DNA of 58,326 nt from an uncultured Candidatus Saccharibacteria bacterium (GTDB lineage: Bacteria; Patescibacteriota; Saccharimonadia; Saccharimonadales; Saccharimonadaceae): NCBI GenBank assembly GCA_963539345.1, contig CAUTLS010000001.1, positions 1 through 58,326 on the forward strand, read 5' to 3'. The notes beneath the pieces were generated by a model. The model was not told the DNA's origin and did no database searches. It saw only the letters and a list, made by a program, of their open reading frames with translations. This document shows, piece after piece, positions 3,835-30,597 of the stretch. Each line of letters begins with the position of its first letter. The first letter of the stretch is position 1. Both the position numbers and the translations under genes were made by a program.

Positions 3835-4707
3835 TTATCGTAGCGTCCAGTTGTTTGCCCCGAGTGGCTTGATCACGCCATTAATCTCCAACATGGTGAG
3901 TGCGGTGGCAAAATCAGCTGCTGATAGTCCCGACTGTTTTTGTAGCTCATCGCCGTTGCGCACGCCATGTTTGATGAGCTTGGCGATGGTAATTTCAGCT
4001 GGTGTAGAACCAATTGGCAATGCGCATTGGGTGGGCTGGGTGGATTTCCAAGTTGGCGCAATGGCGTTCAAAATATCCTTGGCTGAGAGCGCTGGATTGG
4101 CACCTTGAAGCAGCAGGTTGTTACACCCTGCGGATAATGGGCTGGTGATGTTGCCGGGAACGACAAACACGTCACGCCCCTGCTCGAGGGCGTATGCTGC
4201 GGTATTGAGCGTACCGCTACGTTCAGCCGCTTCGGTGATGATGATAGCGTCTGCCAGCCCGCTAACCAGGCGGTTTCTTTGCAAAAAGCTCCATTTGCGT
4301 ATTTTCATGCCGTCGCCGCGCATCCATTCTGATAGGACTGCGCCGCCCTGGTTAATGATGTTCTCTGCTAATCCTCGGTTGCTACGCGGCGCAATATCTG
4401 GCAGTTCTGACGTGACGATACCGATGACTGTGCCGCCAGCATTGAGGGCTGCGGTCTGGGCGATGCTATCAACACCAAGCGCGAGCCCGCTGATGATAAT
4501 CACCCCAGCTTGTGCCAGGTCTGTGGCTAGCCGTTCGGTAACCTCGCGTCCATAGCTACTTGGCTTGCGTGTACCGACGATCGCGACTCGAGGAGCCTGG
4601 CTGTCTGGAAGTTTTCCCATAAAACATAACCTTTTTGGCGGCTTGGCAATATTGACCAACCTCTTGGTGAAAATATGTTCCTCTGGTAGTACTGTATTGA
4701 TTTCCAT
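3835..4707 (-). CDS. dprA: DNA-processing protein DprA
   Basis: AIVGTR, SGLALGVD, FLQRNRLVSGL, SGTLNTA, VPGNI; C-terminal winged helix. Confidence 0.95.
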   Translation of the reverse strand: MEINTVLPEEHIFTKRLVNIAKPPKRLCFMGKLPDSQAPRVAIVGTRKPSSYGREVTERLATDLAQAGVIIISGLALGVDSIAQTAALNAGGTVIGIVTSELPDIAPRSNRGLAENIINQGGAVLSEWMRGDGMKIRKWSFLQRNRLVSGLADAIIITEAAERSGTLNTAAYALEQGRDVFVVPGNITSPLSAGCNNLLLQGANPALSAKDILNAIAPTWKSTQPTQCALPIGSTPAEITIAKLIKHGVRNGDELQKQSGLSAADFATALTMLEINGVIKPLGANNWTLR

Positions 4708-4727
4708 GACTTTTATTGCAAAAAGTA

Positions 4728-4756
4728 TTGACACTATGTCAAATCTTTGCTATAAT
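4728..4756 (+). promoter_or_regulatory. Perfect sigma70 promoter TTGACA-N17-TATAAT
   Basis: TTGACA 4728-4733, 17-nt spacer, TATAAT 4751-4756 (also extended TGc). Confidence 0.85.
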
Positions 4757-4762
4757 GATACA

Positions 4763-5080
4763 CGATTGGTTGATCAGCGAGTTCAACCAAATGCACCTTA
4801 TACCCCCTATTCTAACTATATGTTAGGTTGCGCGCAATGGCATTAAGTATCTTACCCTCCACTTTTTGCGTTAAACGTTACGCGCATACTAACCCCTTTA
4901 ACTGCCCTTTTGATTAAGGCGACCTCTGTTTCATGGTGAGTACGCACTGTATTGACGATTCGTCAGGCGCCGGTCTTTTGGAGTTTTGACCGCAGACGCT
5001 TTGCTATGACATGGAAGCTCGGGTGGGTTGAAGGGTAACAAAGCACCAGGTGATGCCCACCCTTACCTGGTGCTTTTTTA
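4763..5080 (+). ncRNA. Putative structured non-coding RNA (~320 nt), family unassigned
   Basis: Lies between a consensus promoter and an intrinsic terminator; only very short ORFs; several complementary stems. Confidence 0.6.
5040..5079. terminator. Intrinsic terminator (probably bidirectional)
   Basis: AAAGCACCAGGT...ACCTGGTGCTTT followed by T-tract. Confidence 0.85.
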
Positions 5081-5095
5081 GTTGAGAAATTTATT

Positions 5096-5509
5096 TTATT
5101 TCGTTTGGTGTTTTTGACAATTTTTACAAATGCCTTCTAGTTCAAAGTGGTGTTTGACGACGGTAAACTGATGTTTGCGGCTGAGATAGCCGACAAGCTG
5201 CTCCAATTCTGGTGTTTGGATAGGCTCAGCGTTTTGACAGCGGATACAGTAGAGATGGTGATGATGTGGGATGAATGGTTCAGTGAGCTCGTAGTAATTT
5301 TTCCAGCCAATAGCAACAGCGCTGACGATGTGTAGCTGGTCAAAAGTGACAAGGGTGCGGTAGACGCTGGCTCGGTCAACGTTTTTGCACTTCTTTGCAA
5401 TGTCACTAATGGTTAGCGGAACAGCTGACCGTCGCAATACCTCAAATACTTGCTGGCGTGGTTTTGTCAGGCGCAAGTTGTGCTGTTTGAGTAGTTCGTC
5501 TATTGTCAT
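5096..5509 (-). CDS. Fur-family metalloregulator (Zur-like)
   Basis: LRLTKPR, ASVYRTL, HHHHLYCIRC, GICKNC. Confidence 0.93.
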   Translation of the reverse strand: MTIDELLKQHNLRLTKPRQQVFEVLRRSAVPLTISDIAKKCKNVDRASVYRTLVTFDQLHIVSAVAIGWKNYYELTEPFIPHHHHLYCIRCQNAEPIQTPELEQLVGYLSRKHQFTVVKHHFELEGICKNCQKHQTK

Positions 5510-5526
5510 ATTGTTGCAATTATATC

Positions 5527-5553
5527 ATTTATTGCGACAAATTTGCAATAAAT
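5527..5553. promoter_or_regulatory. Palindromic operator, putative Fur/Zur box
   Basis: ATTTATTGC-GACAAATTT-GCAATAAAT in the fur/NAS divergent promoter region. Confidence 0.7.
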
Positions 5554-5579
5554 GAGAGGGTCTGACATCATGAAGCATT

Positions 5580-6347
5580 ATGGATATAGCGATTAGAACA
5601 GTAATGAATTTGCATGAGTTTGCGCCATCACCAGATGTGAATGCGGCTTTTTCTGGTTTGGTGGCGGCAGTCGTGCAGGCAGCAGCTTTACCGAGTTGGT
5701 GCAATGAGGAGGTGCGTCGCGAAGTGCAACGCCGTTGCTCTCTGTCAGAATCAGAGATGGAAATGTATTGGTCGCGGCGAATTGCCAGCTCAGCTCGTCC
5801 GCAGCAAGAGCTGGAAAAGTTTTGGTATATTGACAATTACCGCGAGCTGGTGCGACGTGAGATTGGCCTACTGGGTGGCTCGGGTTTGTTTTTGAGTGAC
5901 AGCAGTCGGGTGGCGATGATTGGCAGCGGTCCCCTGCCTTTGACGGCTTGGTGCTTGTGGCGCCAGACAGGTGCGGCGGTTGATTTGGTGGACGTGGCGC
6001 CAGCTGCCTTGGCGCAGTCACGCGAATTGGCGCAGTTGATTGACTGGCCGGTTGGCAAGTGTCTGGTGGCGGATGGAGCGGCGGTAACTTTGCCGGACAG
6101 TACTTATGATGTGATTTATGTGGCTGGCCTGGCGGGCGATTCGGCTGAAGCCAAGCAGCAAATTATCGATAATATGTTGCCAGCGCTCCGGCCTGGCGGG
6201 CGGATCATCGTGCGCAGTGCACGTGGTGCGAAAACGTTGCTGTATCCAGCGTTTGACCCGAATAGTTTACAGCGCGTGCAGTTGTTGGTCGAGTATAATC
6301 CTGACGACGACATCATTAACTCGGTATATGTGTACAAGAAAGGCTAA
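5580..6347 (+). CDS. Nicotianamine synthase family protein (SAM-dependent)
   Basis: FWYIDNYRELVRRE, IGSGPLPLT, YDVIYVAGL, RSARGAKTLLYP, DDIINSV match NAS motifs. Confidence 0.9.
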   Translation: MDIAIRTVMNLHEFAPSPDVNAAFSGLVAAVVQAAALPSWCNEEVRREVQRRCSLSESEMEMYWSRRIASSARPQQELEKFWYIDNYRELVRREIGLLGGSGLFLSDSSRVAMIGSGPLPLTAWCLWRQTGAAVDLVDVAPAALAQSRELAQLIDWPVGKCLVADGAAVTLPDSTYDVIYVAGLAGDSAEAKQQIIDNMLPALRPGGRIIVRSARGAKTLLYPAFDPNSLQRVQLLVEYNPDDDIINSVYVYKKG

Positions 6348-6349
6348 TT

Positions 6350-7249
6350 ATGAATGATAAGATTGCACTATATCTGGTGAATGGCGCGCTGGGTGCGGGC
6401 AAAACCACGCTGGTTGATTTTTTGGTGCAGCAACCGGAGTTTGCTGGCGCGCGAGTGATTGAAAATGAATTTGCGTCGGAAAGTATTGACAGCTGTACAT
6501 TAGCACAACGCGTTGATGAACTAGCGACAATTGCTGGTGAGTGCATCTGTTGTAGTAGCGGCGAAGAGCTGGTTGATATTTTGCACAATTTTGCAATAAA
6601 CGGACGAGCACCAGTGATCATTGAGTCAACTGGTGTCGCTAATACTCTGCGGGTGGTTGAGAAATTACTGGCTGGTGATGTCTTTGAGCAGTATGATTTG
6701 CAGCAGTCGTTGTATGTTGTGGATGGAGCTGAAGCCAGGGCTGATGGCCTGACGGAGGCTTTGCTAGCGGAAGCTCGGGCGGCGGACATGGTATTGATCA
6801 GCAAGCTGGATTTACTGGCTGAAAATGACCGCCAGCAGCTCATTGAAACATTGTTGCAACAAGGGGTAACCAACGTTATGAATATGGATCACGGCAAATT
6901 TGATCTGGTCCAGCTTGGCGGCGAGTCGCACATTTTGGATTATTTACTACTGCACGAGCCTGTGAAAAACGCAGCTGAGTATGCTTTAAATTATAGCGTG
7001 ATTGATGTGGCTGAATTGGCTATTAGTGCTGAGAAGATTGAGAAGATCTGGGCTAGTTTGCGAGATAAATATGCTTTGCGGCGCATGAAAGGCGCGGTTG
7101 CTGATGGTGACGAGACATGTCACATCGAAGCAACGCCGCAGCAAATACAAGTCACGCGCGGTACCACTGACGAGTCATTAAAATTGGTTGTCATTGGTGA
7201 GCGGGCACGTGAGATTACGCGCGCAGTAATTATGAAGGAGTTGGGATGA
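6350..7249 (+). CDS. COG0523/CobW-family metallochaperone GTPase
   Basis: GALGAGKT, IENEF, CICC, IESTG, SKLDL; C-terminal RMKG...LVVIG. Confidence 0.9.
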   Translation: MNDKIALYLVNGALGAGKTTLVDFLVQQPEFAGARVIENEFASESIDSCTLAQRVDELATIAGECICCSSGEELVDILHNFAINGRAPVIIESTGVANTLRVVEKLLAGDVFEQYDLQQSLYVVDGAEARADGLTEALLAEARAADMVLISKLDLLAENDRQQLIETLLQQGVTNVMNMDHGKFDLVQLGGESHILDYLLLHEPVKNAAEYALNYSVIDVAELAISAEKIEKIWASLRDKYALRRMKGAVADGDETCHIEATPQQIQVTRGTTDESLKLVVIGERAREITRAVIMKELG

Positions 7250-17124: not shown

Positions 17125-17199
17125 GGCCTCATCGTCTAGCGGTTAGGACACCGGGTTCTCATCCCGGCAACCGGGGTTCGATTCCCCGTGAGGTCACCA
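17125..17199 (+). tRNA. tRNA-Glu(CUC)
   Basis: Cloverleaf; anticodon arm CCGGG-TTCTCAT-CCCGG; GTTCGATTC; encoded CCA. Confidence 0.95.
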
Positions 17200-30345: not shown

Positions 30346-30408
30346 AAAAATCCTTTCTTTGATTGAGTTAATTTCATTCTTTTTGCCAATTTGTTAACGT
30401 GCGGTAAT

Positions 30409-30533
30409 GGAGAATCAAAAAGACGTCTTTGATTCTCGCACTACCAAAGACGTCAAATAAAACTGTTCGTTTCATCCCTCGGCGGCATGTTTACATCTGT
30501 TTATCAGCCAGATCGCCGCTGTCTTTGGTAATG
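30409..30533 (-). promoter_or_regulatory. L10 leader RNA with attenuator hairpin
   Basis: Minus strand CCAAAGACAGCGG...GCCGCCGAGG...GTCTTTGG, followed by the GAGAATCAAA/TTTGATTCTC hairpin, upstream of rplJ. Confidence 0.75.
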
Positions 30534-30597
30534 TTCCTCACCATTGTAGCAGAAATGACAACGAAATGCAACAGGCATATTATATCAAAACAAAGAG

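Follow-up and report, generated by a model that had tools for sequence, protein, structure and literature searches.

A large, conserved and very probably new structured RNA encoded divergently from dprA in Saccharibacteria

What is encoded by a piece of Saccharibacteria DNA that begins with a perfect bacterial promoter, ends with a strong terminator and holds only tiny open reading frames (ORFs) in between? The question is raised by positions 4728-5080 of the window, that is, the whole stretch of DNA analysed: 58,326 nucleotides (nt), read on the forward strand, of contig CAUTLS010000001.1 from the assembly GCA_963539345.1 of an uncultured Candidatus Saccharibacteria bacterium. An initial annotation made from the letters alone had proposed an abundant non-coding RNA (ncRNA) at this place, possibly a novel one or else a divergent 6S RNA, transcribed divergently from the gene dprA. 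Our analysis indicates that the locus almost certainly encodes a member of a genuine new family of structured ncRNA, which is large, conserved and restricted to one lineage. What this RNA does is a harder question. One of its hairpin loops closely resembles the anti-Shine-Dalgarno sequence at the 3′ end of 16S rRNA, and a role in translation initiation is the reading that we favour, tentatively.

The two boundaries stood up well. In a sigma-70 scan the promoter scored 12/12 with a TG extension in addition, and it was the sole perfect one among eight sites found between 3500 and 6500 (shuffled sequences gave 3.1 ± 2.3 sites). The terminator is unlisted on the + strand in a terminator scan limited to loops of 3-8 nt, because its 13-nt loop exceeds that limit. 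The transcription unit and its neighbours are the following.

4728-4756, + strand: promoter, with a −35 box TTGACA (4728-4733), a 17-nt spacer, TATAAT (4751-4756) and an extended −10 element TGCTATAAT (4748-4756).
About 4762-4764, + strand: transcription start, predicted from the promoter.
4762-5079, + strand: predicted transcript of the ncRNA in its long form, about 318 nt, bounded by promoter and terminator.
5040-5079, + strand: intrinsic terminator, with a 12-base-pair (bp) G+C-rich stem (5040-5051/5065-5076), a 13-nt loop containing CCCACCC (5056-5062) and a U6 tail.
3835-4734, − strand: dprA (PF02481, E = 6e-65), divergent from the RNA and its conserved upstream neighbour.
5096-5509, − strand: gene for a Fur-family regulator (PF01475, E = 4e-18), convergent with the RNA and offering no read-through target.

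Because both flanking genes lie on the minus strand, the unit is neither a leader nor a 3′ untranslated region. It is not arranged as a cis-regulatory leader, a riboswitch or a T-box: no gene on the same strand follows directly, and all forms of the RNA have a terminator of their own. The downstream neighbour varies between lineages. A TTGACA..TGnTAnAAT sequence was present upstream of the homologues at 40/40 loci in one set and at 30/33 in another, and promoter and terminator were both found at 88 of 100 homologue loci.

Nor did the interval look like a gene for a small protein. As the initial annotation had stated, it holds small ORFs only: one of 36 amino acids (aa) at 4716-4826, which starts upstream of the start site, one of 93 aa at 4565-4846, which starts far upstream, and two minus-strand ORFs of 31 and 36 aa that overlap the transcript. 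No reading frame was conserved across 124 homologues; around five anchors and in six frames, open stretches had medians of 2-39 codons, with a 10th percentile of at most 18 codons. A mini-ORF beginning with AUG or GUG in the terminator (AUGCCCACCC...) was considered and rejected, as it meets no stop before the terminator and lies at a variable distance from the Shine-Dalgarno (SD)-like block described below.

Contigs from sequencing runs overlap the locus. One RNA-seq run (X4) yielded a 180-nt contig at 4813-4992, inside the RNA, and low-depth contigs of runs X9 and X1 start roughly 80 nt before the predicted transcription start. Assembled contigs give neither ends, strand nor level, and the runs were selected by this stretch, so that they neither support nor refute expression. 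The RNA may be abundant, to judge solely from its near-consensus promoter.

We then asked whether the RNA belongs to a known family. A cmscan search against Rfam 15 at the gathering score gave no family at 4728-5079, and at E ≤ 10 there was only terminator-like noise at the locus; distant homologues scanned with Rfam were equally without match. The initial annotation saw no signature of transfer-messenger RNA (tmRNA), RNase P or signal recognition particle (SRP), and this was borne out at the locus by ARAGORN for tmRNA and by the Rfam models of RNase P RNA (RF00010), SRP RNA and, in addition, 6S RNA, none of which matched. The OLE RNA model did not match there either. The window's assembly is incomplete (89% complete, in 71 contigs), and RNase P RNA, tmRNA, SRP RNA, 6S RNA and 16S rRNA were all without match in it; for this reason five congeneric genomes, complete or nearly so, were examined. 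RNase P RNA (full-length, 257-269 bits) and tmRNA (RF00023, 82-92 bits) both sit elsewhere in 5/5 of these genomes, therefore the present RNA is neither of them. In such relatives RNase P RNA, tmRNA and 16S rRNA lie within about 17 kb (for instance at 219955, 223059 and 236080 of contig C2 in genome G009), and in the window's genome they are probably together in one unassembled region.

The models for SRP RNA (RF00169, RF01854) and 6S RNA (RF00013) gave 0/5 in the same relatives (G003, G006, G011, G030 and G009). An SRP is expected to be present in these genomes, and the silence of the models would be explained if the RNA were itself a highly divergent SRP RNA. This is scarcely credible. No SRP model matched at E ≤ 10, and the alignment of 40 homologues showed nothing like helix 8, with its GNRA-type tetraloop and its conserved symmetric and asymmetric loops. 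Moreover, RF00169 was found in 0 of 101 genomes of a phylum-wide sample, while the same model matched 12 of 14 control genomes: the SRP RNA gap is phylum-wide and the RNA confined to one class, so the two gaps do not coincide. In this phylum the SRP RNA may be absent, or may have diverged too far for the model to find it.

No published description of the RNA was found in the literature on ncRNA of Saccharibacteria, TM7x or Patescibacteria, supplementary tables of screens lying outside this search. TM7 and Saccharibacteria go unmentioned in the main text of one human-microbiome screen (PMC8040213), whose supplementary tables, with thousands of candidates, could contain the motif; an anonymous earlier listing in the tables of a large screen may thus exist. 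According to a preprint on the cultivated strain TM7x, small RNAs have yet to be validated there (10.1101/2022.03.25.485537), and a related complete genome is annotated with only two ncRNAs (PMC8830319).

The strongest argument for a structured RNA comes from its fold. The predicted minimum free energy is −101.5 kcal/mol (z = −3.9), and none of 100 shuffled sequences was as stable. A model of 64 pairs was counted on an alignment of 40 sequences (A2): 91.7% of the cells were paired, against 80.1 ± 0.4 in shuffles, and both sides had changed in 270 cells, against 84 ± 7. The covariation score was 0.328 versus 0.128 in shuffles, a score that 0/500 shuffles reached, and it fell to 0.058-0.095 when the model was slid by 1-3 columns. 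A second alignment comprised 124 distinct long forms. The elements of the predicted fold, named P for the conserved helices and H for those of the variable domain, are listed here from 5′ to 3′.

4766-4773/4783-4790, + strand: P1, the 5′ hairpin TTGGTTGA/TCAACCAA; double changes in 4/6 pairs, sequence variable between lineages.
4794-4807, + strand: 5′ block CACCUUAUACCCCC, nearly invariant; left single-stranded by the main model, although parts of the D block are complementary to it.
4812-4816/4822-4826, + strand: P2, hairpin CUAAC/GUUAG; 96.1% of cells paired.
4829-4839/4876-4886, + strand: P3, helix enclosing the loop-bearing hairpin; double changes in 10/12 pairs, 94.4% of cells paired.
4845-4848/4861-4864, + strand: P3a, mini-hairpin AAGU/ACUU; double changes in 2/4 pairs, with ACGU/ACGU and AUGU/ACAU variants.
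4849-4860, + strand: P3a loop with UUACCCUCC (4852-4860), the anti-SD look-alike; UACCCUCCAC invariant in 40/40 sequences.
4888-4902, + strand: C block ACUAACCCCUUUAAC, which includes the 5′ strand of P4 (4894-4902).
4894-4902/5027-5035, + strand: P4, helix CCCUUUAAC/GUUGAAGGG; 99.1% paired in 124 sequences.
4903-5020, + strand: variable 3′ domain, with H5 (4931-4940/5000-5009), a hairpin (4953-4957/4961-4965), H6 (4966-4969/4997-5000) and H7 (4971-4975/4988-4992, loop UUUUGGAGUUUU).
5021-5037, + strand: D block GGGUGGGUUGAAGGGUA (GGGUGGGUUGAAGGGUR), G-rich; GGGUGG(G) at 5021-5027 faces the terminator loop, GUUGAAGGG at 5027-5035 supplies P4 with its 3′ strand and AGGGUA at 5032-5037 faces the loop sequence UACCCU.

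Most of the stems that had been found by eye reappear in this model. The 5′ hairpin is real and covaries. The pairing of 4894-4907 with 5021-5035 has P4 as its core, with compensatory variants: among the 124 long forms the end pair is C-G in 96, G-C in 10, U-A in 5 and U.G in 3, and an inner pair is U.G in 107, U-A in 13 and C-G in 4. In the alignment of 40, P4 and the pairing of the G block with the terminator loop are both invariant. The enclosed stems 4931-4940/5000-5009, TGACG/CGTCA and CGGTC/GACCG fit the minimum-free-energy fold and vary in a compensatory manner within the genus; in the same alignment, double changes were seen in 3/4 pairs of H6, 4/4 of H7 and 8/9 counted pairs of the terminator stem. 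A proposed helix joining 4822-4834 with 4881-4893 is retained in part: its GCGCG portion belongs to the covarying P3, and its GTTAG/CTAAC portion competes with the local hairpin P2. The alternative partner of GUUAG, CUAAC at 4889-4893, is paired in 98.2%. P2 is favoured because in 43 of 99 homologues its loop reaches at least 14 nt and 36 of these 43 inserts fold at −4 kcal/mol or better, as stem-forming insertions would; three sequences with A at the first position retain the alternative pair and not P2. Both pairings are compatible with the data.

The G-rich D block is complementary to four conserved C-rich blocks, namely the terminator loop, the C block, the loop sequence UACCCU and the 5′ block. 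With the 5′ block, CCUU/AAGG is paired in 98.8% and ACCC/GGGU in 92.7%, with no covariation possible. With CCCACCC of the terminator loop 88.7% of cells are paired, partly owing to a register problem; CCCACCC is invariant in the order and is absent from the short form of family f151 described below. Both pseudoknots suggested by the initial annotation are, at the level of sequence, real complementarities. For GGGTGGG/CCCACCC the two sides are nearly invariant in the order, and for TTACCCT/AGGGTAA a core of 6 bp is 96.4% paired in the 124 sequences of the order, the full 7 bp being limited to the window's genus. The end pair of this loop/D-block pairing is U.G in 86 and U-A in 26 sequences of the order, and C-G in 20 of 21 parsed short forms.

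The fold bears directly on the suggestion of a divergent 6S RNA, or of an Ms1-like RNA that binds RNA polymerase. Like 6S RNA, the present RNA is a single-copy, strongly promoted and widely conserved stand-alone ncRNA, and no 6S RNA is detectable in the five complete relatives. However, it has no rod with a central bubble: its two ends are not paired with each other, the 5′ end forming its own hairpin and the 3′ end the terminator, and several branches lie between them. It is also much longer than a typical 6S RNA, and RF00013 remained unmatched at the locus (E ≤ 10), in the window's genome and in the five relatives. We consider this identity very improbable.

How widely is the RNA distributed? 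BLAST with the element revealed a single copy in 33 of 36 congeneric genomes, at 71-100% identity, and short conserved pieces in eight other families; the loci read from this search share promoter, blocks and terminator with the window. With R1, a covariance model of the 5′ half (17 sequences, 142 positions), the RNA was detected in 138 of 151 genomes belonging to the window's order and in 112 of 121 genera; just 2 genomes gave two matches each. These order tallies, and those of 16S tails below, include one unpublished genome, G069, on which no claim depends. In a phylum-wide sample R1 was found in 6/7 genomes of the own order and in 0/144 others. In a class-wide sample it was found in 40/46 genomes of the own order and, as weak matches, in 8/25 genomes of f151, a family of another order.

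The link with dprA extends beyond the window. When the upstream regions of dprA were compared, R1 matched in 19 of the 21 closest dprA loci (DprA identity at least 52%; 20 titled Saccharibacteria and one Nomurabacteria), and the two loci without match are also without upstream sequence. In other bacteria R1 was found upstream of dprA at 0/58 loci.

The weak matches in f151 proved to be a reduced form of about 230 nt, preceded by a promoter of the same type and lying between dprA, on its upstream side, and a convergent gene. R2, a model built on this short form (7 sequences, 146 positions), detected it in 70 of the 105 genomes that represent the class's other orders: 23/25 in f151, 11/21 in f153, 9/10 in f155, 4/7 in f158, 3/3 in f159, 2/3 in f160, 6/6 in f161 and 0/8 in f149. 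Outside the class R2 matched 1/151 genomes in the phylum sample (G269, locus L229); a second genome of the same family also has the RNA (L241), and the two loci share the hairpin and the helix. A 12-mer search for the short-form loop across the phylum was discarded: it matched 50 of 301 genomes, but a control with the reversed pattern also matched many, and among 12 loci read from it one (L241) was the RNA, the others being coding or unrelated contexts.

There are then two forms: the window's order has a long one of about 310-490 nt (homologues range from 305 to 489 nt), and the short one, about 230 nt in length, belongs to other orders of the class. P4 is kept in short forms, with compensatory changes (CCCUUUCA/UGGAAGGG, and CCCUUCAA/UUGAAGGG in f153). 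As predicted from the alignments, the class-wide core consists of a long helix capped by the hairpin with the ACCCUCC loop, together with the helix CCCUU(U/C)AA/UU(G/A)AAGGG. By its sequence record the RNA is single-copy, of a housekeeping type and conserved throughout the class. Two further observations concern the other orders. Family f153 (L242-L252) has an intermediate form, with a local hairpin ACCUU/AAGGU at the 5′ end, the D block GGUGAGGUUGAAGGGUGU and the terminator loop GACCACCCAC. At the short-form loci L192-L197, L199 and L200 of f151, a conserved stretch ...GC(G/U)AGCAUG(G/A)AGCGGAAUAAA lies about 40-110 nt past the terminator, before the convergent gene.

The element that could hint at a function is the loop of P3a. 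It reads (G/C)UUACCCUCCAC in the long form (40/40), A(A/C)UCACCCUCCUUUU in f151, f155, f159 and f161, UGCACCCUCCUUU in f153 and AAUCACCCUCCUUU outside the class, and ACCCUCC lies within the hairpin loop of all short forms inspected and of L229. The loop amounts to the anti-SD core with one extra C (CACCUCCUUU versus CACCCUCCUUU in 16S rRNA). In the window's genus the 16S tail is GGAUUACCUCCUUUCU (5/5 genomes, L201-L205) instead of the usual GGAUCACC..., for an RNA loop UUACCCUCC. In f151 the tail is GGAUCACCUCCUUUCUAG and the loop AUCACCCUCCUUUUAG, ten letters matching apart from the extra C.

Does the loop follow the ribosome when the 16S tail changes? The tail with U was found in 55/151 genomes of the order and the tail with C in 0/151, and U is also what the long-form loop has at the corresponding position. 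Among the genomes of the class sample with a match, the 17 of the own order divided into U 17 and C 0, and the 59 of other orders into U 10 and C 49. The U variant also occurs in f149, f152, f154 and f156 and in two f153 genomes; 8 of the 10 other-order genomes with a U tail belong to families in which neither model finds the RNA. Strict co-evolution of loop and tail was rejected, since genome G422 has a U-tail 16S with a C-type loop, UGCACCCUCC, and f153 has GCACCC. The co-variation appears to be essentially one event, and is not strict. Furthermore, the variable loop position also pairs with the D block (C-G, U.G or U-A), so that internal pairing explains the variation of the loop equally well.

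A natural variant that should be useful for probing the role of the loop is found in the window's own family, at L198 (genome G364, genus g247): the loop region is AUCCCCUUCCCCUUU rather than UUACCCUCC and the G block GGUGUGU, with CCCACCC and P4 retained. Separately, we considered an SD-like H7 loop kissing the anti-SD-like loop. The motif, UU(A/U)(A/U)GGAGUUUU, occurs in only about 19 of 107 homologues and is absent from the short forms, and was set aside as no core feature. GGAG is enriched in the 3′ domain, being present in 51 of 107 sequences, against 26 ± 4 in shuffles.

From these features we propose, tentatively and at less than even odds, that the RNA would act on translation initiation by mimicry of the anti-SD sequence through its ACCCUCC loop. 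It might do so in two ways. The loop could pair with G-rich, SD-like sequences, or it could offer a look-alike of the 16S tail, or of the duplex between that tail and an SD sequence, to a factor of the 30S platform. An ORF resembling ribosomal protein bS21 was found in 5/5 genomes tested, in two of them above the Pfam cut-off. The SD-like D block (GUUGAAGGGUG) could pair either with the C block, forming P4, or with the loop, and the loop would accordingly be exposed or hidden. Pushed further, the RNA would be a two-state decoy of the 16S 3′ tail, serving ultra-small epibiotic bacteria as a housekeeping RNA of a new kind. With P2, P4 and the pairing of G block and terminator loop all formed, the exposed loop would compete with the 30S subunit for SD-bearing mRNAs or for a platform protein such as bS21; in the alternative fold the D block would hide it, and the switching of folds would set global translation initiation, for example between host-attached and free states. 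We regard this extension as quite unlikely. As a whole, the best explanation joins a new ncRNA family to an anti-SD-mimic mechanism, and our confidence in this combination, blended over its two parts, falls slightly short of even.

Several observations weigh against a role by mimicry, or against a vital one. The loop and the 16S tail have co-varied in a single event, with G422 as a counter-example, and all of f153 has G where the 16S has U. The extra C makes the loop no exact mimic. Its perfect complement, GGAGGGU, has no more than 22 occurrences in the genome, few of which are SD sites (GGAG is found upstream of about a quarter of the 609 long ORFs). CCUCC, a short motif, could instead make a tertiary contact or bind a protein for unrelated reasons. 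As for the switch, P4 and the loop/D pairing are mutually exclusive, and in the main f151 group the D block, AAAGGGAAU, can form no more than 4 bp with the loop. In 13/151 genomes of the order the RNA is either missing or too diverged to be detected, and the motif pattern was present in 45 of 54 high-quality genera of the window's family and in none of g27, g252 and some others. Families f149, f150, f152, f154 and f156 likewise gave no hit. The gaps within the order and the window's family argue against strict essentiality. The sequencing contigs, finally, are uninformative on expression.

Some of these points serve the main rival, a structured ribonucleoprotein scaffold or a ribozyme unrelated to translation, built on a compact pseudoknotted core of C-rich and G-rich blocks, in which the likeness of ACCCUCC to the anti-SD would be a coincidence. 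That four C-rich blocks are all complementary to one G-rich block, that sequence conservation far exceeds the needs of pairing, and that the hairpins at the periphery vary, as those of RNase P or OLE do, would all suit such an RNA, and the extra C and the G422 counter-example lend it weight by weakening mimicry. Yet the short form, in which the loop and P4 persist, has neither the terminator-loop motif nor the 5′ block, so that not every member possesses the elaborate core. In addition, the short-form loop matches 10 consecutive letters of the 16S tail bar one insertion. We hold the scaffold or ribozyme to be somewhat unlikely.

Mimicry of the anti-SD has also to be distinguished from a plain antisense action, in which the C-rich loop would be the seed of a trans-acting small RNA and cover the G-rich ribosome-binding sites of a few mRNAs. 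RsaE/RoxS and the hairpins of RNAIII in Gram-positive bacteria offer the precedent: the present RNA shares with them unpaired C-rich motifs able to cover G-rich SD sites, here including a hairpin loop with CCUCC, and a promoter and terminator of its own. A few genes indeed have GGAGGGU(A) as their SD sequence, for example at sites on contigs C8, C9, C25 and C42. However, seed-type small RNAs are not usually so long (about 230-490 nt), so invariant in sequence across a class or so intricately folded into covarying helices; the RNA is much longer than these regulators, and the Rfam scan gave no match to RsaE/RoxS. An antisense regulator of this kind seems improbable.

Returning to mimicry of the anti-SD, the closest parallel is OLE RNA of Bacillota. 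Its P6 stem is described as pairing an anti-SD with an SD-like sequence, and as the binding site of ribosomal protein bS21 (PMC12054373). The two RNAs have in common that they are large, highly conserved and lineage-restricted, and that an anti-SD-like CCUCC element can pair with an internal SD-like sequence, in likeness of the duplex between 16S rRNA and mRNA (the same source for OLE). They differ in that there is no similarity by sequence or model, the window's RNA being about half the size and from a different phylum, and its anti-SD look-alike lying in a hairpin loop where that of OLE is in a stem, with a pairing that is only predicted.

In a wider sense, the RNA resembles the lineage-restricted orphan RNAs raiA, ROOL, GOLLD, HEARO and the motifs that comparative screens have named after phyla, which were likewise found through conservation and covariation and have variable peripheral hairpins around invariant blocks. 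It matches none of them, and the invariant anti-SD-like loop and the position linked to dprA are particular to it.

Elsewhere in the window, some features were noted in passing. Next to the Fur gene and divergent from it lies a nicotianamine-synthase-like gene (5580-6347, + strand; PF03059, E = 3e-43), followed by an ORF of 299 aa (6350-7249, + strand). The cluster 5096-7249 may serve metal uptake or the making of a metallophore, which would be unusual in so small a genome. A ribosomal protein L10 leader (RF00557) was found at 30408-30546 on the − strand with 48.5 bits (gathering score 44), and five tRNA genes lie at 17125, 43133, 48421, 48939 and 49030.

The genomes of Saccharibacteria and their relatives, at about 0.6-1 Mb, contain very little non-coding DNA. 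That an RNA of about 300 nt has been kept nearly letter for letter in its core across a class of such compact genomes makes a central role likely. With good support, the RNA joins the few large conserved bacterial RNAs whose function is unassigned, and its anti-SD look-alike loop gives a concrete handle that is testable in cultivable oral strains. Should the mimicry be true, a large ncRNA would for the second time, and independently of OLE RNA, have been found to copy the site at which the ribosome docks its mRNA.

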